Positions 35,563-57,554 of a stretch of DNA of 64,000 nt are shown here, piece by piece. The notes under the pieces were generated by a model. The model saw nothing but the letters and a program-made list of their open reading frames with translations, was not told the DNA's origin and made no database searches. Each line of letters starts with the position of its first letter. Positions within the stretch are counted from its first letter, which is position 1. The stretch covers positions 32,001 through 96,000 of the forward strand of contig CAVOVB010000002.1 in the NCBI GenBank assembly GCA_963699755.1, given 5' to 3'. This DNA comes from an uncultured delta proteobacterium (GTDB lineage: Bacteria > Myxococcota_A > Polyangia > Polyangiales > Houyiibacteriaceae). A program made the position numbers and the translations under genes.

Positions 35563-36885
35563 TCACGAACCAAGGGCGAGAATCTCTTCGGCGGCGCGGC
35601 GGCCGCTGCGCATGGAGTGGTCCATGTTGAAGTACTGCCATTCGCCGAAGCGGCCTACGTTCCAGATGTCGTTCTCGCGCAGCCAGCTGCGGATGGTCTC
35701 GACCTTCCCTGCGTGGTCGAGGTCGTAGATGACGTATGCCGGATAGATCTTCTCAGTGTGGACGAGCTCGATCGTGTCGTCCTCCGTGATGAGCCCGGCG
35801 AGTTTCACGGCTTCGATGGTCTTCTCGACTGCAGTGTCCGTGTCGAGCGGTCGGTATTGCGAGAAGGCGACTTCGGTGGAGATCGCGCTCTTGCCAGGCG
35901 GGACCGTGTCGGGGCTGAAATTCGCCGGAAGCGAGAGTCGGTGGAAGGGAAACATGTCCTCGTAGTAATAGATCCAGTGCTTGTCCGAGATGTTCTCACG
36001 GTCGATGCCCAGGTTGACGCAGTGGATCCCCTGGTACTGAAGGCCGGCGCAGGCGCGTTTCACCGCAGGTGGGAGATCATCAATGAAATGCGGTAGAAAT
36101 GGCAGAGGCAGCGAATAGATGAGGCGTCGGAAGGGCACGATCTCGCCGTCGTCGAAGACCACTTGCTTCTTCGGTAGCTCGATCTTGACCGCGGTCCGCT
36201 CGAGGTGGATGTTCTCGACCCGGGCCGCCAGGGCTCGTGGCAGCGGCTCAATTCCCCCGCGCTTTGTGTACCAGAATTGAGAGGTTGCTCCGACCTGGCC
36301 GACTTCGTCCGTAAGGGCGCCATGGATGATGCGCTCCACGTCGGGTGTGGGCACCCTGCGGCCGATCCAGCTAAATTCCATGTGCTGGGGATCGATGGTC
36401 CAAATCTTCTTGGCGTAAGGGACCATGAGATGCTCGGTGATTCCTTCCCCGAAGAAACCACGCATCCATTCCAAGTAGTTGTTGGGATTGAACTCTCCCC
36501 GCGCTTGACGCTCGACAGCACGAACCAGGCCGTTCAGGCACTCGGCCACGAGTTCCGTCGGCAGACCGTGCAGATGGGCCTGGAACGGGAACCGCGTGTA
36601 GAGGTCGTGGGCATGATGGTAAATGTAGGCCTCGCGGTCCTGAGCGTGGAAGTTCTCCCCAAGCAGGTCCTGGATCAGCTCGCGAATCTCCTCGTCGATC
36701 GTGAAGAGGATGTGCGGGCCGTAGTCGAAGCGATAACCGTCAATCACCGCGGTTCGCGCCAGGCCGCCGGGCGTCGCATTGCGCTCGTAGACCTGCCACT
36801 CGTGCTCGCCAGCGCTTTGAAGTGTGTAGGCTGCAGAGAGCCCGGCCAAGCCTGCACCCAGGATGACGTCGCATCGCTCAGTCAT
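35563..36885 (-). CDS. FAD-dependent oxidoreductase (protoporphyrinogen oxidase/UDP-galactopyranose mutase-like) of polysaccharide locus
   Basis: ILGAGLAGLSAA, PGGLART..GYRFDYGPH and GRFGEWQYFNMDHS. Confidence 0.82.
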   Translation of the reverse strand: MTERCDVILGAGLAGLSAAYTLQSAGEHEWQVYERNATPGGLARTAVIDGYRFDYGPHILFTIDEEIRELIQDLLGENFHAQDREAYIYHHAHDLYTRFPFQAHLHGLPTELVAECLNGLVRAVERQARGEFNPNNYLEWMRGFFGEGITEHLMVPYAKKIWTIDPQHMEFSWIGRRVPTPDVERIIHGALTDEVGQVGATSQFWYTKRGGIEPLPRALAARVENIHLERTAVKIELPKKQVVFDDGEIVPFRRLIYSLPLPFLPHFIDDLPPAVKRACAGLQYQGIHCVNLGIDRENISDKHWIYYYEDMFPFHRLSLPANFSPDTVPPGKSAISTEVAFSQYRPLDTDTAVEKTIEAVKLAGLITEDDTIELVHTEKIYPAYVIYDLDHAGKVETIRSWLRENDIWNVGRFGEWQYFNMDHSMRSGRRAAEEILALGS

Positions 36886-36888
36886 CGA

Positions 36889-37983
36889 CTAGGTACCGGC
36901 CTTGTCAACAGTCCGCTCAACGAGGCCCAGCACCGTCTCGACGTAACTACGAAACGTGTGGCGTTGCACAGACTCGAGCCCCCGCTTGCTGAAGCGCGCA
37001 CGGAGCGCGGCATCTCCGCTCAAGCTCTGAATCGCGGAGGCGAGAGCCGCTGCGTCGCCGGGCGGAACCAGCAAGCCGTTCTCGCCCGATTGGACGTAGT
37101 CCAGCGTCCCGACCGTTTCAGTAGCGATGACCGGCTTACCGATGGCCATCGCCTCGAGAATGACAACCTGGCCCCTGGAGCTCCTGATCTCGTTAAGGGG
37201 CACGATGACGAAGTCACAGCCATGCAACAGCTCCAGGTACCGTTCATAGGGCTGGTCGGCGAGCACGCGCGTGCGGCGTGGAAACTCCGCGCCTCGGAGA
37301 CTCGCCTCGTCCCCGAGCACGACCAAATCTAGGTCTAGATCCCGGACCGCCGCGGCGAGGAGTTGGTAGTCGCGCCCTGTCCTTCCAGCGCTGAACGCAT
37401 AGCCCAGCTCCTGCCCGACAAGCCCCGGGTTCACGACGTTCGTATGAAAGAAGACGAACTGGAAGCGCTCACGTGGAATCCCGAGACGCTCGCTGTAGAT
37501 GTCGATCTCTCCGAGCGCGGATGTGATCAGCAAGTCGGTCGACGCGAATGCTGCGCGCTGGAAGGCTCGCTTCAACTTCCAGAAAAGCGAATCCTTTTCG
37601 TCGTCCAGCATGAGCTCGAGATGGATGTGAACCGGCTGGCGGATGCGCAGCACGGTGCGCAAGAAACCGAAAACCTGCCCGCAGCGCAAGCCTGAGGTGA
37701 CGACGGCATCGTAGTTCGCTTGGTTAACCAAGAGCTTCAGCGCCTTGAGTACGATGCTGGGCGTCATGCTCTTGCGATCCAACCAACGACCCAGCGCACC
37801 GAACGAGCTGGTCTGCACGTCATCCACGAAATCCGTGGCCCTCGACCAGAGGGAATCCTGTTGAATATCGACGTCAGTGAGGATACGGGAGCTGCGGAAC
37901 GCCAGCGACTCCTGTCCCTGATTCGGCACAGCCTTTGCGCGGGAGGTCCCAACCGCTAACGTCTCCTGTCCCTCATTCAGCAC
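36889..37983 (-). CDS. Glycosyltransferase, GT4-like (start 37983 or 37929)
   Basis: SAGRTGRDY, VILEAMAIGKPVIAT and GENGLLVPPGD. Confidence 0.85.
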   Translation of the reverse strand: MLNEGQETLAVGTSRAKAVPNQGQESLAFRSSRILTDVDIQQDSLWSRATDFVDDVQTSSFGALGRWLDRKSMTPSIVLKALKLLVNQANYDAVVTSGLRCGQVFGFLRTVLRIRQPVHIHLELMLDDEKDSLFWKLKRAFQRAAFASTDLLITSALGEIDIYSERLGIPRERFQFVFFHTNVVNPGLVGQELGYAFSAGRTGRDYQLLAAAVRDLDLDLVVLGDEASLRGAEFPRRTRVLADQPYERYLELLHGCDFVIVPLNEIRSSRGQVVILEAMAIGKPVIATETVGTLDYVQSGENGLLVPPGDAAALASAIQSLSGDAALRARFSKRGLESVQRHTFRSYVETVLGLVERTVDKAGT

Positions 37984-37996
37984 ACTGTTCCCCAGG

Positions 37997-38809
37997 TTAC
38001 GGAGTATCCAGTTGGAAGGAGCCTCCACCAACGATGGTGAAGTGGTTCTCACCGACCAAGTCAGAAACGTTTTCTTCCAATTGAAAATTCTCGTCGCCCA
38101 TTCTCCATAGACTCGTCACGGAATCAGAAGAATCGTATCCGGGAAAATCGAATCGGACATTCTTGGGAGTTCCGTCGTTATACACGCCAGCGATGTTTTC
38201 ACTCGACAGGGTTGTGTTCCAGAATGCCACTTCGTCTAAGGAACCATGGAAGTAGTTTTCGCCCATCCCCTCCTTCGCGAACTGGATGTTTCCAACGGCG
38301 ACGAGCGGAGCCCGCTGATCTCCAAAGCCGACCTCCTCACCGTTGAGAAACAGCTTCGCATTCGCCGAAGCCGCTCGTGAATCGAAGGTGAGCATGACGT
38401 GATTCCAGTCTTGCGGATCGGCCACATCGGCTACGATCTTGGCACCGGGCACATTCTCGAAATCGGGCGTCACGTGAACACTGACCTGGTTCGAAGCTTC
38501 CCAGTAAACGCTAACTCGCATGGAGTCACTACCGGTTTCTAGCTCGGGATTGAGCTGGATCATCATCGCGCCAGCCGCGGGTGCCGCGGCTGCTTTGAAC
38601 CAGATAGAGAGTGAAAACATCTCGATGGGGCTACCGAGCGTGGTGGAAATGTTCCCTGCGCTCCCAAAGCCGTCCACTCCGTTGAAGAGCAAGGAGTAGT
38701 CATTCTCCGTGCTACCCGGAAAGTTCGGTCCATTCTCGTTGGCGTCCGAAGAGCACGCAGTGGAGAAGAAGCAAACCAAGAGAACTGCAATCGCTTTTGC
38801 AAAAGTCAT
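37997..38809 (-). CDS. LamG/concanavalin A-like jelly-roll lipoprotein
   Basis: FSTAC lipobox; FSLSIWFK, WNHVMLTFD, KLFLNG and FHGSLDEVAFWNTTLS. Confidence 0.85.
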   Translation of the reverse strand: MTFAKAIAVLLVCFFSTACSSDANENGPNFPGSTENDYSLLFNGVDGFGSAGNISTTLGSPIEMFSLSIWFKAAAAPAAGAMMIQLNPELETGSDSMRVSVYWEASNQVSVHVTPDFENVPGAKIVADVADPQDWNHVMLTFDSRAASANAKLFLNGEEVGFGDQRAPLVAVGNIQFAKEGMGENYFHGSLDEVAFWNTTLSSENIAGVYNDGTPKNVRFDFPGYDSSDSVTSLWRMGDENFQLEENVSDLVGENHFTIVGGGSFQLDTP

Positions 38810-39081: not shown

Positions 39082-40086
39082 ATGAGGTCTCTCGAACAAA
39101 CAATCACGGTGTTCTCCACGTTCCCAAGGGTTGATCGGATCGAGCTGCCTTCGTCGGTGAACCACATGCCTTTGACCGGAGAATCGTTTCTACGGCTTGC
39201 CAGGGCGTATTTGTCGAAGCGGCGCGAAGAGCGTTGCTTTCTCTTCAACGGCTTGTCCCGACAAGTCTGGGCGCTTGCGCTCCTCAAGTGCATCGTACCG
39301 AACCGAAGACGCAAACTGGTCGTGGTGGACATGATCCTCTCTGTGCCGACCACCTGGAGAGACCGACTCGTCATCTCCTTTCGCAGGAAACTATTTTCGA
39401 AAGTTGATCTATTCATCAGTTACGCCCGAAACACGAACGGCATTCAAGAGATCTATCGCTTGCCTGAATCCCGATTTCTCTACGTTCCATTCAAGGTGAA
39501 TGACTGGGAGATCGTCACGAAGCTGGAGACCGGAGACGATGGCTACATCGTGGTCGCGGGCCAAACGCGCCGCGACTTCGCCGCGTTTCGACGAGCGATC
39601 GAGCATTTGTCGATTCCAGTTCGGATTGTCGCGCCTACTCAAAGCGTGCTCTCTCAACATGGTTCCGTCCTCAGCTCCGAAGGCTGGCCGGAGCACGTGG
39701 TGTTCGTGAGAAATGCGCTCACCGCCGAAACATTTCTGCCGGAAATCGCACGAGCGCGTTTGGTTGTACTGCCGATCCTCGAAAAGAACATCACTCCTTC
39801 CGGTATCGGCGTATGCCTGGTTGCGATGGCTTTGCGCAAGTGCGTCGTGGTCAGCTCGGGGCCCGTGGCCGACGGATTGGTGGACGACGGACAGGCTATC
39901 GTCGTCCCGGCTGGCGATTGGGTCGCACTTCGTGATGCGATCGCGAACGCCTGGAAAGACTCGAAGCTCAGGGAGGCCACGGCTGAGAGAGGATTCGAGT
40001 ACGCGATGGCTCTGGGCGACGAGAAACGGCTCCACAAGGACATGTTCGACGCAATCGTCCGGCTGAGCCGCGGCGATGCGACGTAG
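39082..40086 (+). CDS. Glycosyltransferase (GT4-like)
   Basis: VAGQTRRDF, ARLVVLP..SGIGVCLVAMALRKCVV and IVVPAGD. Confidence 0.75.
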   Translation: MRSLEQTITVFSTFPRVDRIELPSSVNHMPLTGESFLRLARAYLSKRREERCFLFNGLSRQVWALALLKCIVPNRRRKLVVVDMILSVPTTWRDRLVISFRRKLFSKVDLFISYARNTNGIQEIYRLPESRFLYVPFKVNDWEIVTKLETGDDGYIVVAGQTRRDFAAFRRAIEHLSIPVRIVAPTQSVLSQHGSVLSSEGWPEHVVFVRNALTAETFLPEIARARLVVLPILEKNITPSGIGVCLVAMALRKCVVVSSGPVADGLVDDGQAIVVPAGDWVALRDAIANAWKDSKLREATAERGFEYAMALGDEKRLHKDMFDAIVRLSRGDAT

Positions 40087-40128: not shown

Positions 40129-41406
40129 TCAGGCCGCCACATGGGAGTCCTTTCGTCCTAGTAGCGATGCGCGCGTCGTTTGCAGAAACCGATCGGCGAT
40201 ACGGTCTCGGTCGAATTGCTCAGCCACGCGGCCGAGGGCGTTCTTGCCTCTTTGGCGGGCCGTTTCCGGCTGAAGCGTGTTGAGCGCTTCAATCCACTCC
40301 GCTTCAGATTCCGCTCGAAAGTAGTCGCGTTGCGGGTCGAGCCCGATCCCTTCGACGCCTCGTTCCGTTCCGAGGCATGCGGTCGCGAAGAGGCTGCTCT
40401 CGATCGCCTTCACGCGGGTGCCGCTTCCGTAAAAAATAGGTACGAGGCTGATGATCGCAGAGTGGTAGTATTGAGCCACGGAGTCGACCTGGCCGAGAAA
40501 GCGGATTCGCGAATCGCGGAAGTACGGGGCAAGCCAGTTGCCGTCCCCGGAGCCCACGATGGTCAGCAAGTAAGGGCGAGTGACCTTGGGCCAGACCTTC
40601 TCCAAGAACCATCTCAGCCCATCGCGATTTGGCGGCCAGTCCAATCTCCCGATGAAGAGAAGCTGGCGCTCATCGGCAGGCGCGGGGCGCTGAGGCTTGG
40701 GTTCCATGCCAATGGGAAGGGGTTCGACGCGTGCCCGGGGAGCGATCTCCCGAAACCGACCGGCATCAGCGTCCGAAACCGTAAGGACCAATTGGGCAGC
40801 GTCACAGAGCGAAGCCTCGAACCGTTCGACGGCCTTTCCCTGCCACTCGAGGAGTCGCGCGGTCAAGCCGCGTTCTTGGGAAGCCGCTCGAAACCAGAGG
40901 TCTGCCTCGACATTGTGAGCACGATAGATCATCGGGACGCGCGGCCAGTCGGCGAGCTCCTGAAACCAGGCGGCGGCGTGCAAACCGTCAAACACGACCA
41001 CAGTCCCGGGCTCGGAGACCGCCCGAAAGAGCTTTCTGCAACCGTCCTTGGTCACGTACTGGGAAAGCGTCAGCGCTCGAGCGGGGTGGCGGAGCAGATT
41101 CTTCAGGTGAAGCACTCGCCCGGGCTTCGGTCTGCGAACGACGGTCGCCGACCGAATTCCCAGCGCACCGCGGGCTTCGAACTCCGAAACCTCTTCGCCC
41201 TGCGGCACGATGGCCAGCAGGTCGATGATTGCGCCTTTGAGACACAGGGCGCAAACTAGTTGTGTGGTCGCCTGCCGGGCACCGTCGCTTGCAGGCAATG
41301 GCCATTTTGGGGTGATCCAAAGAATTCGCTTCATCCCGATCGATGCGTCTTGACCGGTCGAGGACTCCGCAACGATTCCATCGGTAGTGAGGCCCAGCAT
41401 AGTCAT
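40129..41406 (-). CDS. Glycosyltransferase family 4
   Basis: RILWITPKWPLP..DG, HNVE, FIGRLDWPPNRDG and VPIFYGSGTRVKAIES. Confidence 0.88.
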   Translation of the reverse strand: MTMLGLTTDGIVAESSTGQDASIGMKRILWITPKWPLPASDGARQATTQLVCALCLKGAIIDLLAIVPQGEEVSEFEARGALGIRSATVVRRPKPGRVLHLKNLLRHPARALTLSQYVTKDGCRKLFRAVSEPGTVVVFDGLHAAAWFQELADWPRVPMIYRAHNVEADLWFRAASQERGLTARLLEWQGKAVERFEASLCDAAQLVLTVSDADAGRFREIAPRARVEPLPIGMEPKPQRPAPADERQLLFIGRLDWPPNRDGLRWFLEKVWPKVTRPYLLTIVGSGDGNWLAPYFRDSRIRFLGQVDSVAQYYHSAIISLVPIFYGSGTRVKAIESSLFATACLGTERGVEGIGLDPQRDYFRAESEAEWIEALNTLQPETARQRGKNALGRVAEQFDRDRIADRFLQTTRASLLGRKDSHVAA

Positions 41407-42203
41407 TTGGCTAGAATCATCACTAGATCCCCCCCGAACCTCTGGGTGAACGGCAGGGCACGAAAGACAACTTGGTCAATCTGCTCGATTCTGCTGGGGC
41501 GTTCGGGATGGCGATTGGGCAAGAACTTGCTGAAGCGAGACAAGAGGTTGAAACGTATCAGCTCGAATTTCGGGAAAGCCGACAAGACCATATTCAGCTG
41601 TTCGCGATTGAGCTTCTGTTCGTCTTCAGTTCGGTGGGCTTCGAGCGAGGGTTCGTTCGAAACCAACCAAGTCACGAGCCGCGAGTTTCGCAGGGCGTCG
41701 AATACTGGCACTTCGACGAACTCGCGGAACACGGCGATGCCACCGGGCTTGAGGACGCGGTACGCCTCGCGGATGGCATCCTCGACTTCAACGTGATGCA
41801 AGATGTCGAAGCCCGCGACGACGTCGAAGAAATCATCCGGGTATTCGAGGTCCTCTGCAGCCTGCAACGAGAAGTCGGTACTGTCGCCGAATCCATAGCG
41901 GTCCGCCTTGCGGCGACATTCGACGATGTTCTCTTCACAGACATCGAAGCCCCACACTCGGTAGCCGATCTTGGAGTGGCACATCGATGCATGGCCCAAG
42001 CCGCAGCCGAAATCGAGGAGCCGCTGGGAGGGACCCTGATATGCGTCTTGGATGATCTGATAGACTCGCCAGTAGGAATTCCAGGGGCGTCTCTCGTGGC
42101 CCATCACGGGATCGAATACGACCTCCTCGTCGTCGTGTGTCCGCGAGTATTCGCGATAGAACTGGCGTTCGCGCTCTTGCCTCGCTGTCAGATATTGCAT
42201 CAC
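41403..42203 (-). CDS. Class I SAM-dependent methyltransferase
   Basis: LLDFGCGLG, AEDLEYPDDFFDVV and RVLKPGG. Confidence 0.88.
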   Translation of the reverse strand: MMQYLTARQERERQFYREYSRTHDDEEVVFDPVMGHERRPWNSYWRVYQIIQDAYQGPSQRLLDFGCGLGHASMCHSKIGYRVWGFDVCEENIVECRRKADRYGFGDSTDFSLQAAEDLEYPDDFFDVVAGFDILHHVEVEDAIREAYRVLKPGGIAVFREFVEVPVFDALRNSRLVTWLVSNEPSLEAHRTEDEQKLNREQLNMVLSAFPKFELIRFNLLSRFSKFLPNRHPERPSRIEQIDQVVFRALPFTQRFGGDLVMILAK

Positions 42204-42257: not shown

Positions 42258-42617
42258 CTAAGCCTCGACGCGAGCGCCTGGTGTCACGGAATGCTCAGCC
42301 ACCACGGTATCGGAGTCGTCCACGCAGGACACGAGCTTGGTGAAGCCCACCCGTTCGAGCAGCTCATAGACGATGGTAGGCACGTCGACGAGTCGCAGGT
42401 CCGTGCCGCGGATTCGTAGATGTGAGTAGAGTCGCACGAGCATGGCCAGTCCCGCCTGATCGATCCGGCGAACCCGCTCGAGGGACAACTCCACACACTC
42501 GACGCCCACGAGTTTCGAGAGCGGGAGTCGCTCGGCCAACCTCAAAGCGTCGTGGCCCAAGAGATCACCATCAAGCTCGATCCGCAGTCGAACAATGGAT
42601 TCACCTCGCGTCTTCAT
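42258..42617 (-). CDS. STAS-domain protein (anti-sigma antagonist, SypA-like)
   Basis: IELDGDL, VELSLERVRRIDQAGLAMLV and VYELLERVGF; ATGA coupling to the upstream gene. Confidence 0.8.
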   Translation of the reverse strand: MKTRGESIVRLRIELDGDLLGHDALRLAERLPLSKLVGVECVELSLERVRRIDQAGLAMLVRLYSHLRIRGTDLRLVDVPTIVYELLERVGFTKLVSCVDDSDTVVAEHSVTPGARVEA

Positions 42618-43987
42618 GACCGGCTGACATTAGCATGCATCGTGCCAAGTTCTTGGTGAAGATCAGACGGGGCGAGCTCCGCGTTCCAGATTTGTTCCAT
42701 GGCGGCGGACTGGGCGAACAAGATGAAGAGGAACCAGCTCCAACATTGCGATAGAAAGAACGCGGCGACGCAGAACCCGACCATCGATGGAAACATGGAG
42801 CGACGCACGGCTTGCCCCATTGGGTCGTCTTCCGGCACATCCGCCTTGCGGTGGTGATAGGCGAGACGGACGGTCAGAAAAACGAGCGCCATGAACGGGA
42901 TGAAACCGATGAGCCCGGTCTCCGCGGCGGCCTTGATGAACGAGTTGTGTGCATCGCGCGGCTCCCAGTTGACGGGATTTCGGGCGTAGCCGTGGTAGTT
43001 GTCCGGGAATTGGCCGAAGCCCACCCCGAAGAGCGGATTGTGAGCTGCCATACGAATTCCCGACGCCCACATGTCGAGCCGGCCCTGTGCGGATTCATCG
43101 AGCTCGCCAACCTTCAAGGCTCCGCTGGACCTCTCGTTCACGCCCGCGAGAAACAGCATGGCAACGACAAGTGCCACAAGCGCTGGCGCGAGCGCGAGCC
43201 GAAGGCTGACCCGGCCTCGGTCGTAGAAGGTGAACGCCAGCGCCGCCATGAGCCCGAGCGCTCCGCCGCGAGACACGGTTGCGAATATCCCGCCGACCAG
43301 AACTGCGAGCAGCAAGCCCCAGGAAAGACGCCTGATGCCGCGTGTCGACAGGGCAAGCTCGGCGAACAGCGGCACATAGATCAGCAGGACGAGCGCGAGA
43401 TCGTTTGGGTCTCCCAGCAACCCGGCGAGTCCGGCTCGATTGCCTTCGACCGTCGCTAGGCCCGAGGTCCTCAGGTGAATCGCCAAGAGCGCCAGCCCAA
43501 CCGTGCATAGGGCAAGGCTGAGGTGGAGCTTGACCGCCTGCCGCTTCGTAGTGACCAGATGGACCACGAGCACGTACATGATCAACATCTTGATGAAGAC
43601 ATCGCCGAAGTACGCCCAGCTCGCCGCCGGGTTGGTGCTCATCAGCGATGACAGCATCACTGCTCCGGCAAGTGCGAGCATCCACTTGCCGTGAGGTGCG
43701 GGAGACACCCGTATGTCGCCACGAAACAGCTTCGTGATCAGCCACGAAAGGATCGCAACCAGTCCGACGAGCTTGGCAGGCTGAATTGCGGCGAGCACTG
43801 GAAAGTGATCGGCGGGCCTGAGGACAAGGACCACGATGAACGCAAGTGTCGCATTGAGCGCGCTCGAGAGAGTCCAAACGATCGCGGCGACGCCGAGGAC
43901 GACCCCGAGGGCCGCCATTGGATGCACGGCGGCCGCGGAGGCGCCTACGGCAATTGCAACGCCGCCGAGGAAGGCAGCGCCACGCAC
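42614..43987 (-). CDS. O-antigen ligase/Wzy-like polymerase (SypL-like)
   Basis: Multi-TM protein; GLLGDPNDLAL, TVSRGG, DESAQGRLDMW, NPLFGVGFGQF and AHNSF. Confidence 0.88.
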   Translation of the reverse strand: MRGAAFLGGVAIAVGASAAAVHPMAALGVVLGVAAIVWTLSSALNATLAFIVVLVLRPADHFPVLAAIQPAKLVGLVAILSWLITKLFRGDIRVSPAPHGKWMLALAGAVMLSSLMSTNPAASWAYFGDVFIKMLIMYVLVVHLVTTKRQAVKLHLSLALCTVGLALLAIHLRTSGLATVEGNRAGLAGLLGDPNDLALVLLIYVPLFAELALSTRGIRRLSWGLLLAVLVGGIFATVSRGGALGLMAALAFTFYDRGRVSLRLALAPALVALVVAMLFLAGVNERSSGALKVGELDESAQGRLDMWASGIRMAAHNPLFGVGFGQFPDNYHGYARNPVNWEPRDAHNSFIKAAAETGLIGFIPFMALVFLTVRLAYHHRKADVPEDDPMGQAVRRSMFPSMVGFCVAAFFLSQCWSWFLFILFAQSAAMEQIWNAELAPSDLHQELGTMHANVSRS

Positions 43988-45265: not shown

Positions 45266-45816
45266 GACGACCTACGAAGCTGCCGAGTGATGACTCCGGG
45301 AGGCAATTGGGGCGGCCATGTCCTGAGGCCGGCTTTGATGCGGCGCAGAGTCTCGGCCGGAGACGGACATTCGAGCTCATTCCAGACCCCCCCAAGCATT
45401 GGCAAGCCAAGAACGCGGAGCTGGTCCGCGCAAGCCGCCACCTGTGCCCGGGTCGTGGTCATGCCCCGGGCTATGAGGAGCGCTCCATCGAAATTGGCGC
45501 GGACTGAGGGAGTCAGTGCGGCAGCCCCTTCCCCTTCCAGCAACGCCAGACCGTCGACCCAGACATAGCCGTGCGCGGGCTCTGCCGTCGGCTCAAGCTC
45601 TGCTTTCGACAGCGGCGCCGTGAAGCTCTGCACCATAGAGGTCTCGTTCGTCACCGCGCTCGCGTGCCGTTGAATGCAGCGTGCAAAATGGGTCTTTCCA
45701 TCCCCAGAGTGGGCGGACACCAGGAGAATGCGGTGTGCGTTCGCCGACTGTGCAGCGCCAAACACGCGCGCCACGAGGCTGTGCTCCTCGCGCAGCAATT
45801 TAGCAGAGCTGGTCAC
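45262..45816 (-). CDS. Minimal BY-kinase-like (CapB/CpsD, SypD-like) protein
   Basis: GTG with AGGGAAG RBS; ILLVSAHSGDGKT, FDGALLIARGMTT and PMLGGVWN. Confidence 0.7.
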   Translation of the reverse strand: MTSSAKLLREEHSLVARVFGAAQSANAHRILLVSAHSGDGKTHFARCIQRHASAVTNETSMVQSFTAPLSKAELEPTAEPAHGYVWVDGLALLEGEGAAALTPSVRANFDGALLIARGMTTTRAQVAACADQLRVLGLPMLGGVWNELECPSPAETLRRIKAGLRTWPPQLPPGVITRQLRRSS

Positions 45817-45917: not shown

Positions 45918-45963
45918 GTTTCATTCCGAAACAAGGGTGGGCGTCTCCGTGCCGGTTCGGAAC
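45918..45963. promoter_or_regulatory. Paired palindromic activator-binding sites
   Basis: GTTTC-N5-GAAAC (45918) and GTGCC-N5-GGAAC (45949), 31 bp apart, between divergent sigma54 promoters. Confidence 0.6.
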
Positions 45964-45983: not shown

Positions 45984-45999
45984 TGGCTCGATCCTTGCT
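45984..45999 (+). promoter_or_regulatory. Sigma54 promoter for the GT4 pair
   Basis: TGGCTCGATCCTTGCT = GG-N10-GC. Confidence 0.7.
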
Positions 46000-48425: not shown

Positions 48426-48442
48426 TTGGCGCGCAGGTTGCA
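48426..48442 (+). promoter_or_regulatory. Sigma54 promoter for the GT2-sugar transferase fusion
   Basis: TTGGCGCGCAGGTTGCA near-consensus; paired upstream sites at 48320 and 48351. Confidence 0.78.
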
Positions 48443-50312: not shown

Positions 50313-51782
50313 TCAGCGAAGCCCGTACTTCTCGAGCTTTCGATAGAGCGTCGTCCGACCGATCCCTAGCGCTTTGGCCGCTTCGGTCAGGCGGCCATTC
50401 TTGTCACGGAGCGCCCGTTTCACGGCCCAGCGCTCTACGGCTTCCAAGGACAGTGGTAGCTCCTCGAGGGATCTTGGCGTGGGTCGTGCCCGTAACTCTT
50501 CCTCCGCGCGCATACTTGGGGCTTCCAGGCCGTTGACGACCGTGTCCCCGTCACCTGGGGCCGAAATGTTCGACTCGGGCAATCTCGATGACCGCGCGTA
50601 GTGATCCCGAACCCGAACCGGCAGGTCTTGAAGGTCGATTTCGTTACCGGTGGCGAGCACGGCAGCGCACTGCAAGATGTTCTCGAGCTCCCGGACGTTT
50701 CCCGGGAAAGGGTAGCGCTCCAGGGCACACATCGCTCGCGCGCTCAAGCGCAAAGGCTGCGCGCCAAGGCTGTTGCAAAGGTCTCCGAGGAGCCTCGGCA
50801 CCAGCAGGGAGAGGTCACCATCGCGCATCCGCAGTGCCGGGAGCTCGATCTCGAAGACGACGATCCGGAAGTAGAGATCTTCGCGAAAACGGTTGGTCTC
50901 AACCATGTCGCGCAGGTTGCGATGTGTCGCGGTGATCAGACGAAAGTCGCTCTCGACCGTGCGAATCCCGCCCAGACGGTCGAAACTACGCTCCTGCAGC
51001 ACCCGCAAGAGTTTGGCTTGCACGGCAAGGGACAGCTCGGCGACCTCGTCGAGAAAAAGCGTGCCACCGTCCGCGCGCTCGAAGCAGCCGGCCCTCGCCT
51101 TATGTGCGCCGGTAAAGGAGCCCCGCTCGTGTCCAAAGAGCTCCGAGTCCTGCAACGACTCGGGGATCGCAGCGCAATTGATCGCAACGAAGGGTCCGCC
51201 CGCGCGTCGACTGTTCTCGTGGATAGCGCGGGCGATGAGCTCCTTGCCGGTTCCGCTATCTCCGCGAATCAAGACGCTGATGTCGCGGCCGGCGATGCGA
51301 TCAACTTGACGAAACACCTCACGCATCCGTGGAGACCGGCCAATCACGCCCGCGTAAGAAACCTCCTCAGCGGGGTCATCGATTCGCGCCGAAGCGCGTT
51401 CGTCTGACGATCGCAGGGCGCGATGGATGGAGGACAACAATCTGCCGCGGTCGACCGGCTTGGTCAGGTAGTCGGAGGCCCCAGCTCGCATGGCGTCTAC
51501 GATCGACTCTGCCGAGGCCTCGGCGGTGAGCACCAGCACTGGAACGCTCGGGTGTTGTCGGAGGGACGCATCGAGCGCCTCCCAAGCGCCGATTCCTGGT
51601 AGGCTGAGATCCAGGCAGACTAAATCGGGCAAGGTGGTGTCGAGGCTGTCCAGGAAGCTCTCCGCATCCCAGCATTGGGCTGTGCGCAGGCCCGCGTCGT
51701 TCAGCCATCCTGTGACGAGCGTGCGCTGATCAGCATCGTGCTCGGCGAAGACGACCAATGGGCCACCTCGAAATGACTCCAT
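50313..51782 (-). CDS. Sigma54-dependent response regulator (REC-AAA+-Fis; NtrC/SypG-like)
   Basis: GAGGAG RBS; DLVCLD and YLTKP receiver; GDSGTGKE, ELFGHERGSFTGA, FLDEV, FREDLYFR; HTH AAKALGIGRTTLYRKL. Confidence 0.95.
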   Translation of the reverse strand: MESFRGGPLVVFAEHDADQRTLVTGWLNDAGLRTAQCWDAESFLDSLDTTLPDLVCLDLSLPGIGAWEALDASLRQHPSVPVLVLTAEASAESIVDAMRAGASDYLTKPVDRGRLLSSIHRALRSSDERASARIDDPAEEVSYAGVIGRSPRMREVFRQVDRIAGRDISVLIRGDSGTGKELIARAIHENSRRAGGPFVAINCAAIPESLQDSELFGHERGSFTGAHKARAGCFERADGGTLFLDEVAELSLAVQAKLLRVLQERSFDRLGGIRTVESDFRLITATHRNLRDMVETNRFREDLYFRIVVFEIELPALRMRDGDLSLLVPRLLGDLCNSLGAQPLRLSARAMCALERYPFPGNVRELENILQCAAVLATGNEIDLQDLPVRVRDHYARSSRLPESNISAPGDGDTVVNGLEAPSMRAEEELRARPTPRSLEELPLSLEAVERWAVKRALRDKNGRLTEAAKALGIGRTTLYRKLEKYGLR

Positions 51783-51961: not shown

Positions 51962-53779
51962 TCACCAGACGGCGCCGCTGGCGTGGAGAGCTCGCGGATA
52001 GCTCGCGATCACCTCGCTCGCGCGAGCGGCGTGATAGGCGATCAATTGAAGCGGCACGGCGAGCACGAGCGGGGACCAAATGGGGTCGATTCGGCTCGCT
52101 TCGATGCACTGCAGGCCATCTCGCTTTGCGACGACTGCGGTGCGCGAGTCACCCAGCAAAATAGGTTCCCCCCCTCGCGCGATGACCTCATGCACGTCGG
52201 ACAAGGTATGATCGAAGGTCTCATCGTGCGGCGCAACGACGACCACCGGCGTGCCTGGCTCGGTCAACGCGCTCGGACGGTGTTTGAGCTCCCCGCCCGC
52301 AAGACCTTCAGCTGGCACATCGGCAAGCGTCTCGACGGTGAGCGCACCTGCTTGGGCGAGCGGATAGTTCTTGCCCCGCCCCAAGTATAGGCCACGGTTC
52401 TTCTCGGCTATCCGACGACCGACCGCGACACACTGATCTTCCTGCTCGAGCGCGCTCTTGATGGCCTGCGGCACGCCGAAAATCGAAGCGGTGATTACGT
52501 CGCTTTTCGCCACCCCATCGCGTCGCTGTCGAATGACGATTGATGCCGCTGCAAGTGCGCAGAGCGTAGCCGTGAAGGCGTTGGTGGATGGGATTCCGAC
52601 CTCATGGCCTGATCTGCAGTCGAGCACCGCGTCGGCCTCTCGGACCAGTGCGCTCGACGTCACGTTGACCAGGGCGACCGTCGGAACGTTTCGCTGTTGC
52701 AAGTACCTGAGCGCTTCGAGTGTGTCCGCGTCTTCTTCCACCTGGGAAACCAGAAGCGCCATGGTCCCCTCCATAAAGACTGCATCGCGGGTCTTGAGCT
52801 CCGAGCTCAGCTCGAGCTCGACCGGGATGCCGGCGATCTGTTCCAGCCAAGCCCGGCCAACATGCGCCGCATGGTGCGAAGCGCCGTTCCCGACCGCGAG
52901 GATTCGGTCCGCTCGCCATAGCGGCCCGCACCAGCAATCCAGCTCGCCGGAATTCATATCGCGCTCGAGCTCGAGCAAGGTGCGGCCTAGGATTACGGGT
53001 AGGTCTTCGATCTCTTCGCGGACGAAGTTGGTGACGACCGTCCCGCTCTGCCGCGTCTCGGCTGAGCTCACGATTCGAGTCCAGCGAGGGACGATCTGCT
53101 CGAGATGCGAGCCGAAGATGCGGACCTGACCCGGGCAGAGCTCGGCAATCTGTCCGTCGTCGAGGGACACGAATTCGCTCGCGACCCGGCCCAGAACGAT
53201 GGGGTCGGAGGCCAGCCAGGAGGCGCCACCCGCCCGCGCCGCGGCGAGTGGATTGCCGCGCCGCGCCGCGTATAGGCAATCGTCGTACTGCGTGCAGATC
53301 ATGCCAAGCGCAAAGGACCCTTGCAGCTTGGGAAGCACAGTCCGCAATGCCGTAATTGGGTGAGCGCGATTGGCGAGCTCTCTGTCCAGCAGCCACACGA
53401 TTACTTCGCTGTCGGTGTCGCTTCGGAACTGGACGCCCTCATGCTCCAGCGCGGCCCGAAGCTCTGCATGGTTTTCGACGACCCCGTTGTGAACGATGGC
53501 GACTCTCGAGCTGGCATGTGGATGGGCGTTGTGTCGAGAAGAGTCGCCATGTGTAGCCGAGCGCAAGTGGCCGAGAACGGTCGTCGAACTGATCGGCTCA
53601 TCTGAAAGCAGCGTCTCCAAGAACGACAGAGGTCCCGTTGCCCTTCGCCTCTGAATCTGGCGGTCGGTCAAGACCCCCAAACCGGCCGAATCACAGCCCC
53701 AGTGCTCCAAATCGGCCAAGCCGTGCATCACACTGGGCACCACGTTGTCATGTGCTGTCGCACAGAAAATCCCACCCAT
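51962..53779 (-). CDS. glmS: Full-length GlmS (glutamine:fructose-6-P amidotransferase) paralog lacking catalytic residues
   Basis: GCDSAG, LGHLRSATHG, NAHPH, VHNGVVEN, SDTDSEVI, LYLGRG, GGELKH and PLQLIAYH; begins MGGIF and ends PRALHASGAVW. Confidence 0.85.
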   Translation of the reverse strand: MGGIFCATAHDNVVPSVMHGLADLEHWGCDSAGLGVLTDRQIQRRRATGPLSFLETLLSDEPISSTTVLGHLRSATHGDSSRHNAHPHASSRVAIVHNGVVENHAELRAALEHEGVQFRSDTDSEVIVWLLDRELANRAHPITALRTVLPKLQGSFALGMICTQYDDCLYAARRGNPLAAARAGGASWLASDPIVLGRVASEFVSLDDGQIAELCPGQVRIFGSHLEQIVPRWTRIVSSAETRQSGTVVTNFVREEIEDLPVILGRTLLELERDMNSGELDCWCGPLWRADRILAVGNGASHHAAHVGRAWLEQIAGIPVELELSSELKTRDAVFMEGTMALLVSQVEEDADTLEALRYLQQRNVPTVALVNVTSSALVREADAVLDCRSGHEVGIPSTNAFTATLCALAAASIVIRQRRDGVAKSDVITASIFGVPQAIKSALEQEDQCVAVGRRIAEKNRGLYLGRGKNYPLAQAGALTVETLADVPAEGLAGGELKHRPSALTEPGTPVVVVAPHDETFDHTLSDVHEVIARGGEPILLGDSRTAVVAKRDGLQCIEASRIDPIWSPLVLAVPLQLIAYHAARASEVIASYPRALHASGAVW

Positions 53780-53833: not shown

Positions 53834-53850
53834 TGCGAAAACCGGGCCAG
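53834..53850 (-). promoter_or_regulatory. Sigma54 promoter for the GlmS paralog
   Basis: Minus strand CTGGCCCGGTTTTCGCA = GG-N10-GC; motif copies at 53902 and 53943. Confidence 0.65.
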
Positions 53851-53966
53851 TCGTCCTGGGGACCCTTTGCGTTTCACAAGCGAACGCCGTGATGCGCTAG
53901 TGTACCGAATAGGGGCGGGGCCCATGCCGTCCGGTAGAAGCCGTTTCAATTCGGACGTCGGCGGGA

Positions 53967-55811
53967 CTACCCACCCACGGGTGCCGGCGCCCTCGCCTCC
54001 CCTTCAGCCAGGAGTTGGAACTGCGGATGGGTGGCGCGCAGTTCCTCGAAGGTTCCCTCTCCCGTGACGACGCCATTTTCGAGAAAGTAGATCGTGTCAC
54101 AGTTCTTCACCGAGGTCAGCCGGTGCGCGATGATGATGACCGTCTTGTTCGGTGCGAGTGTGTCCAATGCTTCCATGACTAGCTTTTCAGTGACGTTGTC
54201 CAATGCACTGGTGGCCTCGTCCAAGATGAGGACGTCGGGATCATGGTAGAGCGCTCGCGCGATTCCTACGCGCTGACGCTGGCCGCCGGAGAGACGAACG
54301 CCGCGCTCACCTGCACGACTCTCGTACTTCCGCGGGAATTCATTGGCTACGAATGCATGGAGGTTGGCGAGCTCCGCAACGGCTTCGACCCTGTCTTGGT
54401 CGATCTGGTCCTTTGGGACTCCAAATGCGATGTTTCCAGCAATGCTCGTGTCCGCCAGGAAAATGCTTTGCGGAACGTACCCAATCGAAGCCTGCCAAGC
54501 ACGAACTTGCCTTTCCTCTATTTCCGCTCCGTCCACCAAGAGCGAGCCGTTCGTCGGCCGGAGCAGTCCTAGTATGATGTCGACTGTGGTCGTCTTGCCT
54601 GAGCCGGTGGAGCCGACGAATCCGACCTTCGAGCCGGCCACGATGCGCAGGCTCATGCGCTTGAGCGTCGGGGCGTCGCTACCAGGATACCGATAGACCA
54701 GATCGCAGAACTCGAGCTGTTTGGTCAGCCTGACCCGCGATTCGACTTCTCGGCCGGCATCCGCGCTCTTCGGGCTGCTTCTTGGTTCTCTGCTGAGACG
54801 TAGCGGGCCCTCCAATGACGTGAGCGCTGCCGTGGAGAACTCCATTTCCGCCAAATGCGCATAGATCCTCTGAAGGGCTGGCATCATTTTGTACCCGGCG
54901 AAGGCATAGAGCCCAATCACCGGCAGGCCTGCGGCAAAGCTCCCCTCGGTTGCGAGCACATAGAGAATCACCAGCAGCATGCCGCCGAAGATGATGGCCT
55001 GCATGGCGATGGACGGCACTTGTCCGAGCACTTTCGACCGAATCATCGCATCGCACATGCGACGTGACACCGAGTCGAATCGCTCGGCAAAGAATGCTTC
55101 GGCATGCAGGACCTTGACTTCTTTGATCCCCGCAAAGGCTTCGGACAAGACGTGATAGCGGGCCTGGTTTGACTCGAGCCAGGCCTCACCGGCTTGGAGG
55201 ATCCGAGACCGAAGGAAACGATAGGTGAAAACGTATGCCCCGCCGAGGACGAGGACAGTCGTAGCAGCCAATACGGGATCGACGATGATCAGGAAGGCGA
55301 ACACGAACAAGGCAACGAGTGCGTTGCTCGCGATCATGAGCAGCGGCAAGACGGCGTGGAAGATCGCTTGATTGACCTCGTTGATGGTGGTCGCAGAGAG
55401 CTCCGAAGTGTGCCTCGCGAGGAACCATTCATAGGGCTGCCGGAGATAGGTCTCTACGATCCGGCAACTCCAAGAGTGCATCAGATTTCCCGCGTACCGA
55501 ACCTGCGCCCAAGCGACGAGCGCCTGCAGGCACAGAGCCGAGAGAACCAGAAAGAAGACCAATGCGCCGGTCAGGATCAGCAAATCGTCTGACGACGTAA
55601 TGCCGGTCCACGAGGATAGTGTCACAAGCGCAGAGTTCGACTGAATGAGATCGGGCGAGGAAAGAATTGCGAGGAACGGCATCATGGACGCAACCCCCGT
55701 GGCCTCGAGAAGTGCGAGGATGCCCATCAGGGACAAGACCTTGAGCGCTCCACGCCGTTCAGGGGGCGAAAGCAAGTCGTGAAGCTGGCGGAGAGAGTGA
55801 ATCAAGGACAC
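53967..55811 (-). CDS. ABC exporter, fused permease/ATPase (PglK/MsbA-like, possible lipid-linked glycan flippase)
   Basis: TM N-half (GVASMMPFL, YLRQPYEWF); GSTGSGKTT, LSGGQRQR, LILDEATSALD and IAHRL. Confidence 0.9.
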   Translation of the reverse strand: MSLIHSLRQLHDLLSPPERRGALKVLSLMGILALLEATGVASMMPFLAILSSPDLIQSNSALVTLSSWTGITSSDDLLILTGALVFFLVLSALCLQALVAWAQVRYAGNLMHSWSCRIVETYLRQPYEWFLARHTSELSATTINEVNQAIFHAVLPLLMIASNALVALFVFAFLIIVDPVLAATTVLVLGGAYVFTYRFLRSRILQAGEAWLESNQARYHVLSEAFAGIKEVKVLHAEAFFAERFDSVSRRMCDAMIRSKVLGQVPSIAMQAIIFGGMLLVILYVLATEGSFAAGLPVIGLYAFAGYKMMPALQRIYAHLAEMEFSTAALTSLEGPLRLSREPRSSPKSADAGREVESRVRLTKQLEFCDLVYRYPGSDAPTLKRMSLRIVAGSKVGFVGSTGSGKTTTVDIILGLLRPTNGSLLVDGAEIEERQVRAWQASIGYVPQSIFLADTSIAGNIAFGVPKDQIDQDRVEAVAELANLHAFVANEFPRKYESRAGERGVRLSGGQRQRVGIARALYHDPDVLILDEATSALDNVTEKLVMEALDTLAPNKTVIIIAHRLTSVKNCDTIYFLENGVVTGEGTFEELRATHPQFQLLAEGEARAPAPVGG

Positions 55812-55925
55812 GCAGTGTAGCCAACTGGAGCGCCCCCCCCAAGGTCTCGACCCGCCAGACAGCTCCCTCGGAAAGAAACCAGCGCGTCTCTGGCCTCCGA
55901 CGCTCGTAAACTGTACTTCACAGCT

Positions 55926-57554
55926 TCATTCCACCGTCAGCTGCGAGACCGGGTACCAGCCGTCCGCTCGACGCCCTGCGATGGCAAGCAACAGCGGCGG
56001 CAGTGCCTTGGTATCAGGCGCCGTGCCGTCGCGATCCAGGAGCGCGAGATCGATCTGATAGGTGCCCTTCGGTAGGTCCGAGGGAATGGCGATGGTATCG
56101 CGTACTTTCCAGCTACCAGGCAACCAGGTGCGAGTGTCCTGTGTGCTGCCGAGGATGATTTCCTTGGTCGGCCCGCGCAGACGGTAGGTCAGGACCCTCG
56201 GTAGATAGTGGGGTGCAACGCCAACATTGCGCCAGTCCGTCTTGAAGGTGGTGCGGCTGCCCACCGGGACGGTGCCCTGATGGTTGAAACGATCGACGAC
56301 AAACCGGTAGCCGTTCCGTTTGAGTAACTCGTCGATGGGGGCGACGTAGATCTCAGGCACCGGCTTAGATTTGGCGTTGAGCACGGAGGCGTGCTGCCTC
56401 AGGGCCCATTGAAACGACTTGTGGACCTCGCCGTTTGGCTTAAGGGCGGTCCAGCCGAGCTCGTGCCATCGCTCGAGCGTGCCGCAGATTTCGAGCTGGA
56501 CGGGCGCCTTCTTCCAGACATCGGTGAAGCCGGCGTCGGCAGCGGTGGCCGCGGCGATCATCGACGGATAGAGCTTGCCTTGGTGACTCCAGGAACCGCC
56601 CCACATTCCCCAGTCGCCCCAGCAGTCGGCGCGCCAGCCAGCGCCGCCCTGCGTGGCATGGAGCATGAGCCCCACGTTCTCTCGATCGAGCCCAAGCATG
56701 ACGACAGGAGTGTTGGAAAAGGCACGCAGGTGATGATCGATGAGCCGGGTTAGCGCCGTCACGATCTGCTGACGCTCCTTGTGGTTACCGGGCTTGTAAA
56801 CGTCGACGAGGCTCTCGGCGTTTGACAAACAAGCAGTGTTCCACTCTCCCCAGCAGCCAACCGTGCCGATATCGACATGGTCGACTGCGGGGTGCCCGTC
56901 GTAGCGGTCTCCAAGAGCGCTGATTAAACGGGCATGCTCGCGCTGAAACGTGGGGTCCCGATAGTCCGGCCAAAAGACGCGGCCGCCGTCGCCCTGACGC
57001 CACTGACCGGCGACGTCGTATGGAGCGCTGGTCAGCCAATCTGGAATTCCGGACTGCCCCTCGGCAACCGTCATCACGCGGAAGGACAGGGTCATCCCCA
57101 TCACGTTGGCGGATTGGATGGCCCGGTCGATCATCTCGAAGTCGATCTGTCCCCGCTTCGGCTCGAGATCTCGCCAGTGCCAGCGGAAATAGGCCGTGCC
57201 GGATTTGGGGTAGTTCTCGGGCCACTGTTTCTTCACGCGCGCTGCGCATTCCTTTGCGGAATAGGTGATCGGCGGCAGGTTGCACCACCAGCCGAAGTGG
57301 AAGCTGGCGAAGCCCATGCCCGGGTTGGTTAGGACGTCGTCGATGCGCGTGGGCTTGACGGTGATGGTGCCTGGCTCGGGAACGTCTGCTCTTGCCGGGG
57401 CGGGCTCCTCTGAGATGCCCTCGATCGCCTCCCGCGCTTGATCGCCATCGGTGTACGCCCGACAAGCATTGTAGGCGACCCCGGAAGCCACGGTGCCGAC
57501 GACGAGGAAGGCGAAAACGAAACGCGAAAAACCCCTGGAAGCTGCTCGAATCAA
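55926..57554 (-). CDS. Secreted/anchored glycoside hydrolase-like protein (GH42-like TIM barrel plus DUF4832-like C-terminus); start uncertain
   Basis: NPGMG, YFRWHWRDLEP..G.IDF, RYDGHP..VDIGTVGCWGEW, GYRFV and WRNVGVAP. Confidence 0.75.
   Translation of the reverse strand: MIRAASRGFSRFVFAFLVVGTVASGVAYNACRAYTDGDQAREAIEGISEEPAPARADVPEPGTITVKPTRIDDVLTNPGMGFASFHFGWWCNLPPITYSAKECAARVKKQWPENYPKSGTAYFRWHWRDLEPKRGQIDFEMIDRAIQSANVMGMTLSFRVMTVAEGQSGIPDWLTSAPYDVAGQWRQGDGGRVFWPDYRDPTFQREHARLISALGDRYDGHPAVDHVDIGTVGCWGEWNTACLSNAESLVDVYKPGNHKERQQIVTALTRLIDHHLRAFSNTPVVMLGLDRENVGLMLHATQGGAGWRADCWGDWGMWGGSWSHQGKLYPSMIAAATAADAGFTDVWKKAPVQLEICGTLERWHELGWTALKPNGEVHKSFQWALRQHASVLNAKSKPVPEIYVAPIDELLKRNGYRFVVDRFNHQGTVPVGSRTTFKTDWRNVGVAPHYLPRVLTYRLRGPTKEIILGSTQDTRTWLPGSWKVRDTIAIPSDLPKGTYQIDLALLDRDGTAPDTKALPPLLLAIAGRRADGWYPVSQLTVE

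Follow-up and report, generated by a model that had tools for sequence, protein, structure and literature searches.

A Syp-family polysaccharide locus without SypC or SypK in the Polyangiales, with a predicted contact between its STAS protein and SypR

The 64,000-nucleotide stretch of DNA analysed here, called the window throughout, belongs to contig CAVOVB010000002.1 of assembly GCA_963699755.1, from an uncultured member of the Polyangiales (Myxococcota). Positions 35563-57554 of the window hold a locus of polysaccharide genes that, by sequence comparison, belongs to the Syp family, known from the syp biofilm locus of Vibrio (Aliivibrio) fischeri. The locus is not a full member of this family, because no SypC, SypK or SypG ortholog was found in it. 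In the reading that we favour, and which we consider on balance probable, it is a sigma54-promoter-bearing Syp-family locus without SypC and SypK, in which a STAS protein would switch on SypR, an ATP-binding cassette (ABC) transporter would flip the product and a borrowed pore would export it. The first-pass annotation, made from the letters alone, had described a Syp-type matrix pathway in this span. Each gene of its roster is present as an open frame, as seen by calling open reading frames (ORFs) and by family scans, and the clustering is not due to chance, because the same gene set is syntenic in the relatives examined. The "matrix pathway" part of the claim is nevertheless unproven, because the export pore is missing: there is no gene for an outer-membrane polysaccharide export protein (OPX; SypC) within 35563-57554, a point which that annotation missed. 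It also left unlisted two genes of the span, encoding an FAD oxidoreductase and an S-adenosylmethionine (SAM) methyltransferase.

The genes on which the argument turns are given here in window coordinates. BY stands for bacterial tyrosine (kinase) and GT4 for family 4 glycosyltransferase.

42258..42617, minus strand: SypA-like single-STAS protein (PF01740; SypA profile E 1.4e-4), Gln54 at the Ser56 position
42614..43987, minus strand: SypL ortholog of the Wzy_C/O-antigen-ligase family, likely the polymerase (PF04932; BLAST and profile)
43988..45265, minus strand: SypO ortholog, a polysaccharide co-polymerase (PCP; PF02706; LLIQDQQTVNPFL; BLAST, profile, tree)
45262..45816, minus strand: SypD-like minimal BY-kinase-fold protein (SypD profile E 3.4e-5; alignment; gene order)
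46040..47188, plus strand: SypP ortholog (GT4d), EX7E motif intact (BLAST E 1e-36; profile E 3.9e-68)
47179..48267, plus strand: SypH ortholog (GT4e), EX7E motif intact (best SypH match; profile E 5.9e-40)
48491..50308, plus strand: SypQ-SypR fusion of a GT2 and a monotopic phosphoglycosyl transferase (PGT; Bac_transf), catalytic motifs intact
50313..51782, minus strand: REC-AAA+-Fis sigma54 activator (GSFTGA), not a SypG ortholog
51962..53779, minus strand: second GlmS copy, catalytic motifs lost, frame conserved
53967..55811, minus strand: PglK/HepA-type ABC exporter (top NCBIfam models PglK and HepA, both under cut-off)

Membership in the Syp family was assessed with the SypA-R proteins of an 18-gene reference locus (genome G396), compared by BLAST with the 27,331 ORFs of the host assembly (5.35 Mb, ~62.5% GC, 11 contigs, 100% complete, 9% contaminated), and with profiles built from 6-15 proteobacterial loci. 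The genome-wide best BLAST matches for SypH, I, L, O, P, Q and R all lie inside the window, at low identities (21-46%). SypL has the window protein as its sole match in the genome (28% over 438 aa, E 2e-36; profile E 2.7e-60), and the best matches for SypR and SypQ are in the fusion (E 1e-44 and 7e-36). In the profile searches, a window protein ranks first for A, H, L, O, P, Q and R; the STAS protein is the only match in the genome below 1e-3 for SypA, while the window protein ranks 4/5 for SypD. BLAST against the same ORFs gave no match for SypA or SypK and none within the window for SypD. SypC matched only short OPX proteins outside the window, and the SypK profile gave only a weak match elsewhere in the genome. 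Orthologs of SypB, E, F, M and N were not found in the locus. The parallel drawn by the first-pass annotation stands for H, L, O, P, Q and R through best matches and profiles and, for O and R, also through trees; A and D are candidate assignments, and it falls for G and for I, J and N. The weak profile scores of A and D count against the reading, while synteny and intermediate homologs in other classes support the two assignments. GT4a, b and c (listed below) were rejected as SypI, J or N, as SypI points to the SypP ortholog and SypJ and SypN have their best matches outside the locus. The activator was likewise rejected as SypG, since it ranks 13/47 by BLAST and 11/62 by profile and falls in a separate clade.

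The trees place both key enzymes beside their Syp counterparts. In a 111-row FastTree of PCPs (even-numbered representatives of at least 400 aa, drawn from 150), the window protein falls in a 46-row clade (support 99) that is sister to the SypO clade (100), and SypO and the Myxococcota together are separated from 33 other PCPs at support 100. In a 114-row quick IQ-TREE of PGTs, whose outgroup was the best 80 of 599 rows from a scan of named genomes that was filled up by generic PGTs, the window PGT belongs to a clade of 24 rows (93). This clade is the sister of SypR (99), and the two have a joint support of 89. The Myxococcota clades are, in these trees, sister to the Vibrio clades and not nested within them; the trees are unrooted and leave the direction of transfer unpolarised. 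In addition, the NPFL motif is common to the window PCP and SypO, and an insertion in the PGT to the fusion and SypR. The comparison with SypA-R that had been proposed for the locus comes out with PCP and PGT as sisters of SypO and SypR. Among 72,556 plasmids, the only co-polymerase matches (2 records) came from a Plesiomonas locus with a syp-like roster, which also gave the top Q-R matches. That locus (L036:3895-25518; G and L numbers are our labels for genomes and loci), on the ~300-kb Plesiomonas shigelloides plasmid NZ_CP062197.1, is a near-complete syp-type locus whose gene order differs from all eight orders in the main text of PMC8941931. A pattern made from the SypA residues named in PMC4517449 matches 3/401 genomes of a Vibrio-containing family, each with an 18-gene locus and a STAS protein agreeing at 20/20 of the published SypA positions.

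The fusion of SypQ and SypR was rightly seen in the window but is not new, as it is described in PMC8941931 for some syp-like loci of Photobacterium, Agarivorans, Pseudoalteromonas and others; it was also found in L045, L046, L077, G164 and G124. The fusion, and with it the locus, occurs in 13/55 genomes of the host genus. Close co-polymerase orthologs were found in 7/24 genus genomes and in 0/16 genomes of the same order. Conservation in relatives, which had been put forward as a test of the annotation, was found: the core D-O-L-A and P-H-QR is syntenic, although rearranged in some genomes, and the variable members are the activator, the GlmS copy, the DUF4832 and LamG proteins, the methyltransferase and extra glycosyltransferases. 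In a scan of 401 genomes of the phylum, with three candidates scored per genome, nine genomes outside the class match at E<1e-120 and another (G799) at E 4e-66. Nine loci from eight genomes of other classes carry a SypC-like OPX gene immediately before D-O-L, and several retain homologs of K, N and A; their gene orders are C-D-O-L(-K) and P-H-N-QR-A. One further contig (G899) begins at the PCP, so that the SypC position lies off the contig, and a 3-kb locus (L215, G1036) was left out. On this sequence evidence, the Syp family extends from Proteobacteria into several classes of Myxococcota, beyond the 28 genera and two classes reported in PMC8941931. Among named homologs, the GT2-PGT fusion is closest to those of a "Polyangiales bacterium" and a "Deltaproteobacteria bacterium", and the atlas cluster nearest to the BY-kinase-like protein is mostly from Myxococcota. 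GC content across the locus is 55-64% in 2-kb windows; its minimum, 55% at window positions 38001-40000 (the LamG and GT4b genes), coincides with the most variable part of the locus.

The locus had also been described as built from degenerate components. Altered motifs were indeed found in the STAS, GlmS and kinase-like proteins, but all 17 locus genes, compared pairwise with up to 8 relatives, have dN/dS ratios of 0.07-0.41, highest in the STAS gene (up to 0.41) and the GlmS copy (0.18-0.38). By these ratios, the locus is under purifying selection.

The STAS protein does lack the serine, as had been noted: in the alignment, Gln occupies the position of SypA Ser56. In 10/10 STAS proteins of the genus this position holds Gln or Glu; other classes have Val, Ala or Ser there. 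Since the non-phosphorylatable SypA-S56A of V. fischeri is active (PMC4517449), the window STAS is likely, by analogy, a switch that is locked on. For SypE, only partial HATPase_c_2 matches within large frames were found, in four genus genomes; V. parahaemolyticus and V. vulnificus likewise have no SypE (PMC4517449). When the STAS protein was modelled together with the fusion, the predicted complex reached an ipSAE of 0.73, as against 0.00 for the best of three controls, with at least 84% of contacts shared between runs and a partner pLDDT of at least 71. The ipSAE mark is reached by 116/157 solved and 2/215 mismatched pairs, counts that are only approximate for the alignments used here. The predicted interface comprises PGT residues 564-585 and linker residues 390-399, and does not involve the GT2 domain. 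This PGT patch, taken between anchors, has 13 residues in 35/38 SypR-clade rows, and the other three read 13 by eye. In other PGTs it has 8 residues in 72/76, with 4 more by eye, and among 66 further generic PGT matches 55 have 8, none has 13 and 11 were unparsed. The difference is a 5-aa insertion near residues 574-586 of the fusion, seen only in SypR-clade enzymes. A STAS gene was found in the flank of 6/80 PGT loci, many of them short; all six loci are syp-type, and five of the six STAS proteins were in the search profile. Of all contacts in the model, those made by the residues that match SypA S56, K67, R68 and R93 have some of the lowest errors; in V. fischeri, K67A and R68A are stable and null, and R93A is stable and defective (PMC4517449, section 16).

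In this model, the predicted partner of the STAS protein is the SypR half of the fusion. Several observations weigh against this reading. Of the four SypA positions at which mutation is neutral, three (R27, E71 and K72) likewise fall within the listed interface, and the residues in contact are not those of Vibrio (K67>S, R68>H, R93>G). Insertion and STAS gene co-occur along one lineage and are not independent counts, and the ipSAE, obtained for the single partner that was modelled, measures model confidence rather than binding and is silent on activation. No STAS-PGT entry was apparent among the PDB matches. There are comparable cases, however: in Anabaena All4160 a STAS domain is fused to a PGT and its phosphorylation inhibits (PMC13555669), and EpsW activates the PGT EpsZ in Myxococcus xanthus (PMC12802240). 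Independently of the window, two metagenome-assembled genomes (MAGs), from Kofleriaceae (L091:9155-10726) and Polyangia (L069:9122-10738), have a SypA-like STAS gene divergent from a small PGT that carries the insertion. This PGT falls within the proteobacterial SypR clade, the L091 STAS retains the serine and the L091 co-polymerase is not of the SypO type; the arrangement suggests that Myxococcota have a second SypA-SypR module, acquired separately.

For the BY-kinase-like ORF, neither Pfam nor NCBIfam gave a match. It keeps a Walker A motif (SAHSGDGKT), including the lysine that Vibrio SypD lacks, but the Walker A' region is deleted and the Tyr cluster is absent; the window PCP has neither a kinase domain nor a Tyr cluster. 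From these features the SypD-like protein is likely a pseudokinase scaffold, a concept comparable to that of the EcpK pseudokinase (PMC12004946). The span between two anchors of the PCP measures 310 aa here, 301-311 in 9/10 genus copies and 360-367 in proteobacterial SypO, that is, about 55 residues less in 9/10 of the genus copies. This shortening was rejected as a marker of pore loss, because G008, without SypC, has a PCP of 368 whereas G799, with SypC, has one of 310.

The claim of a dead GlmS stands in part. Gly replaces Cys1 in the window copy and the Glu and Lys motifs of the isomerase are absent (Cys1, Glu488 and Lys603 have catalytic roles in GlmS), but the motifs are intact in 2/9 genomes (G008 and G046) and differently altered in the other seven. 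This second GlmS occurs in 9/55 genomes, all of them locus-positive, alongside a normal glmS elsewhere. It probably originated as a gene for the supply of UDP-GlcNAc, and may now be a putative sugar-phosphate sensor or pseudo-enzyme, or else a slowly decaying paralog.

Regulation by sigma54 had been proposed for the locus, and at the level of sequence this holds: -24/-12 sites are conserved before three operons and rpoN is present. The rewiring of this regulation was also supported. The sites, scored against the sigma54 consensus, and the candidate activator site are the following.

42632..42647, minus strand: sigma54 -24/-12 site TGGCACGATGCATGCT, 11/12, 30 nt before the STAS start and inside the wzy 3' end
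45984..45999, plus strand: sigma54 site TGGCTCGATCCTTGCT, 11/12, 56 nt before the sypP-like gene
48427..48442, plus strand: sigma54-like site before the Q-R fusion, 11/12 here, conservation weaker
53834..53849, minus strand: sigma54 site TGGCCCGGTTTTCGCA, 10/12, 70 nt before the glmS copy
45918..45932, no strand: palindrome GTTTC-N5-GAAAC between the divergent operons, candidate activator site

The reference syp locus of G396 has 11/12 sites before sypA and sypP, as do their equivalents in the window. A score of at least 10/12, which is found in 0.8% of random 150-nt windows, is reached by the sypP-like site in 9/9 genomes and by the STAS site in 7/10 (it is degraded in G020 and G060 and absent in G014). 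The glmS-copy site scores 10/12 in 9/9, whereas the site before the fusion scores at least 10/12 in 3/11 and at least 9/12 in 9/11. No site of at least 10/12 was found before the Wzy, ABC, DUF4832, LamG, GT4b, GT4c, methyltransferase, oxidoreductase, activator or kinase-like genes; the last has a weaker site (7-9/12) upstream in 10/11 genomes. The palindrome has five perfect copies in the 5.35-Mb genome and is present with at most one mismatch in the divergent region of 8/11 genomes. G020 and G060 are without it; neither has an activator ortholog anywhere in its genome, and the STAS promoter of both is degraded. Because these two are sisters, the loss counts as one event. The REC-AAA+-Fis protein is likely the local activator. 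Nevertheless, G021 has an activator ortholog with a poor palindrome, and the main promoter persists in G020 and G060 although they have no activator; both observations speak against this assignment. The candidate site and its unrelated activator differ from SypG and its TTCTCANNNTGMDWN (PMC10162802). Upstream of the activator gene itself, a conserved GTTGCAATT motif (window 51791-51962) lies 83-90 nt before the start in 5/8 genomes, and other genomes have palindrome-like copies; these sequences suggest possible autoregulation. In G008 (L029:1511-3187) and G021 (L026:8603-10195), a hybrid kinase with HisKA-HATPase-REC-Hpt domains, a SypF-like layout, stands beside the glmS copy and the activator. 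The host genome has no close ortholog of this kinase (best match 30%), and the local activator would therefore need another kinase.

Translocation appears to follow a different route from that of Vibrio. The best full-length PDB match of the ABC protein is PglK/WlaB (E 3e-77), and among PDB single-stretch matches it is most like PglK, although the PglK cut-off is missed (305/1000). Its orthologs occur in 9/55 genomes, all locus-positive; the locus of G014 has another PglK-type ABC, that of G008 has an unrelated-looking Wzx instead, and the locus-negative G050 has a 33% ABC homolog. Thus, a PglK-type ABC likely replaces SypK as the flippase. Regarding the pore, a profile of six other-class OPX proteins found no full-length SypC-type OPX in the 55 genus genomes, including all 13 that are locus-positive; it gave partial generic matches in 50/55, with or without the locus (best E 5e-16, less than half of the model). 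Since loci of other classes have a SypC-like OPX and the genus genomes lack an ortholog, sypC was likely lost in the genus. PMC8941931 used SypC among its three query genes, and SypC is essential in V. fischeri (PMC12994190). Elsewhere, the host genome encodes two OPX types in three matches, one of them duplicated: a 202-aa OPX gene occurs twice with equal scores (G000:C3:788957-789565 and C9:12707-13315), and contig C9 may be a second copy of part of C3. With OPX proteins encoded elsewhere in the genome, and with the polysaccharide clusters of M. xanthus split across the chromosome (PMC9603273), a borrowed pore is plausible. On the other hand, there is no locus-linked OPX, and the three matches of this genome are also present in locus-negative relatives. 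By analogy, then, export through an OPX encoded elsewhere is the weakest step of the reading, one that we put slightly below an even call, with a glycan retained in the envelope only a little less likely.

LpxC and WaaA were not found in the 100%-complete host genome, and LpxC was found in 0/55 genus genomes by a search that was positive in four control genomes. These gene searches suggest that the bacteria likely have no lipid A, and they make it unlikely that the product is ligated to it. The idea that the loss of lipid A caused the loss of SypC was discarded, as LpxC is found in 1/5 other-class hosts that bear SypC and 4/5 of these hosts are also without it.

In the reading that we favour, the local activator would bind GTTTC-N5-GAAAC and fire the promoters. 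The STAS protein, without a phosphorylatable serine, would act like SypA-S56A, so that control would rest on transcription, and it would dock on the C-terminal insertion of SypR and likely activate priming. SypR would load the first sugar-phosphate onto undecaprenyl phosphate; SypQ, SypP, SypH and variable GT4 enzymes would extend the chain; the PglK-type ABC would flip the sugar units; and SypL would polymerise them with SypO and the SypD-like scaffold. Export would then use another OPX protein of the genome, the step where the proposal is most fragile and where we are nearly evenly divided. The main alternative, which we hold to be a good deal less probable but a real contender, keeps the same Syp synthesis and retains the product in the envelope, in lipid-linked, periplasmic or protein-linked form, with SypL as polymerase or as ligase/O-oligosaccharyltransferase. 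It fits the absence of SypC-type OPX from the 55 genus genomes, all 13 locus-positive ones included, and the short PCP span (301-311 aa in 9/10 genus copies, as against 360-367). PglK-type flippases, in addition, serve protein glycosylation and ligase pathways (PMC2841628), and the G014 locus has an exosortase/CAAX-protease gene. That locus (L028:8932-12826) also carries an extra, SypN-like-looking glycosyltransferase and a UDP-GlcNAc 2-epimerase. Against retention, selection has kept the PCP together with the BY-kinase-like protein, a pairing known from systems for secreted polymers (PMC12004946), PCP length does not track pore loss (G008, G799) and no acceptor was identified.

The remaining explanations are far less probable. 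The layout of a Helicobacter-style route to lipopolysaccharide O-antigen through Wzk (PglK-like) and WaaL is matched by a PglK-type ABC, a PF04932 protein and an absent OPX (PMC2841628), but the missing LpxC and WaaA in the host and the count of 0/55 for LpxC largely refute it, and we give it almost no weight. A decaying relic of a once-complete syp locus, without a product, is very unlikely too. The loss of C, K, B, E, F, G, M and N, the dead GlmS motifs, the patchy occurrence (13/55) and the highest dN/dS values in STAS and GlmS (up to 0.41 and 0.38) would suit it; yet no ortholog match contains stops, the glycosyltransferase and PGT motifs are intact, dN/dS stays <0.42 at dS of ~0.7-2.4 and promoters are conserved in up to nine genomes. 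A comparably slim chance is left to a generic Wzy or PEP-CTERM-type locus that is syp-like in roster only, in keeping with identities of 21-46%, the joint support of 89 for the PGTs and top NCBIfam models of PEP-CTERM/XrtA types, all under cut-off, for several genes. This explanation is largely refuted, as six Syp proteins pick this locus as best match, the top plasmid PCP and Q-R matches are syp-type, NPFL and the PGT insertion are shared, and intermediate loci retain SypC, K and N homologs.

Set beside known systems, the locus shares homologs of H, L, O, P, Q and R, and candidate homologs of A and D, with the syp locus of V. fischeri and the scv/rbd/syp-like loci of aquatic Gamma- and Alphaproteobacteria (PMC8941931, PMC4517449). 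It differs from Vibrio syp in the absence of SypC, SypK, B, E, F, M and N orthologs, in a STAS without Ser56 and in the addition of the ABC, GlmS copy, DUF4832 and LamG genes. In Anabaena, All4160/HenR/Alr3423 similarly tie a STAS domain to the priming transferase of an envelope polysaccharide, the unphosphorylated form being active (PMC13555669). Unlike in All4160, the window STAS is separate and has no serine, the PGT is fused to a GT2, and kinase and phosphatase are absent from the locus. The exopolysaccharide (EPS) system of M. xanthus likewise has a small cytoplasmic PGT activator, a kinase-less PCP and a stand-alone BY pseudokinase (PMC12802240, PMC12004946), but here the activator is a STAS and not a REC protein, the small PGT is fused to a GT2, and OPX and beta-barrel genes are unlinked. 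The scores of the window proteins against the M. xanthus Eps models, namely EpsZ (107/800), EpsD (39/370), EpsE (108/400), EpsH (37/800) and EpsU (34/700), are far under the NCBIfam cut-offs. With regard to PglK/Wzk of Campylobacter and Helicobacter (PMC2841628), the window ABC differs in sitting with a PCP and a Wzy-family protein, lipid A genes being absent.

The other genes of the locus are listed below; the FAD oxidoreductase adjoins the locus in G020, G021, G001, G042 and G060.

35563..36885, minus strand: FAD-dependent oxidoreductase, PRK07208-like (PF01593/PF13450), variable member, likely a nucleotide-sugar modifier
36889..38052, minus strand: GT4a glycosyltransferase (PF13692/PF00534), weak Syp matches only and no Syp ortholog; true start probably ~37935
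37997..38809, minus strand: LamG (ConA-like) protein with a lipobox-like N-terminus (PF13385 E 1e-17), likely a lectin lipoprotein
39082..40086, plus strand: GT4b, divergent GT4-like, usual EX7E motif absent (PF13692 E 1.4e-6; motif scan)
40129..41406, minus strand: GT4c glycosyltransferase (TIGR03087-like, under cut-off)
41403..42203, minus strand: SAM methyltransferase (PF08241), variable member, likely a glycan modifier
55926..57554, minus strand: DUF4832/GH42-like protein with an N-terminal hydrophobic segment (PF16116, PF02449; beta-galactosidase match weak, E 1.8e-5), likely an exported glycoside hydrolase

Outside the locus, the 616-aa protein at window 32008-33858 (minus strand) reads like a eukaryote-type (GT3) glycogen synthase, and the genes at window 57763-63769 (plus strand) resemble a pair for 2-oxoacid:ferredoxin oxidoreductase and, after it, one for a beta-like subunit of a V/A-type ATPase.

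Searches of the openly available literature found no paper on syp loci in Myxococcota or on a SypA-SypR interaction, although subscription papers and supplements (tables S4-S5 of PMC8941931; epsSMASH, 10.64898/2026.07.10.737566) may hold either. A more far-reaching proposal, speculative and in its entirety rather unlikely, would be that SypA-family STAS proteins are allosteric activators of SypR PGTs through the clade-specific insertion; that the switch is locked on here and control handed to the locus's own sigma54 activator, with the GlmS-derived pseudo-enzyme as a possible amino-sugar sensor; and that Syp secretion became a pore-less, ABC-flipped envelope-glycan pathway in a host without lipid A. 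In any case, the locus shows which genes accompany SypA where C, K, B, E, F, G, M and N are absent, and it presents a Wzy-family system that selection has maintained although it has no cognate pore, in bacteria that lack lipid A genes. It also offers a candidate for the target of SypA, long unknown, in the form of a residue-level prediction that places the SypA helix around S56-R68 on the SypR insertion and is testable in V. fischeri. SypR was inactive alone in a survey of PGTs, whose authors suggested a missing substrate (PMC11257628); if the predicted contact is true, dependence on the STAS protein may explain this inactivity.

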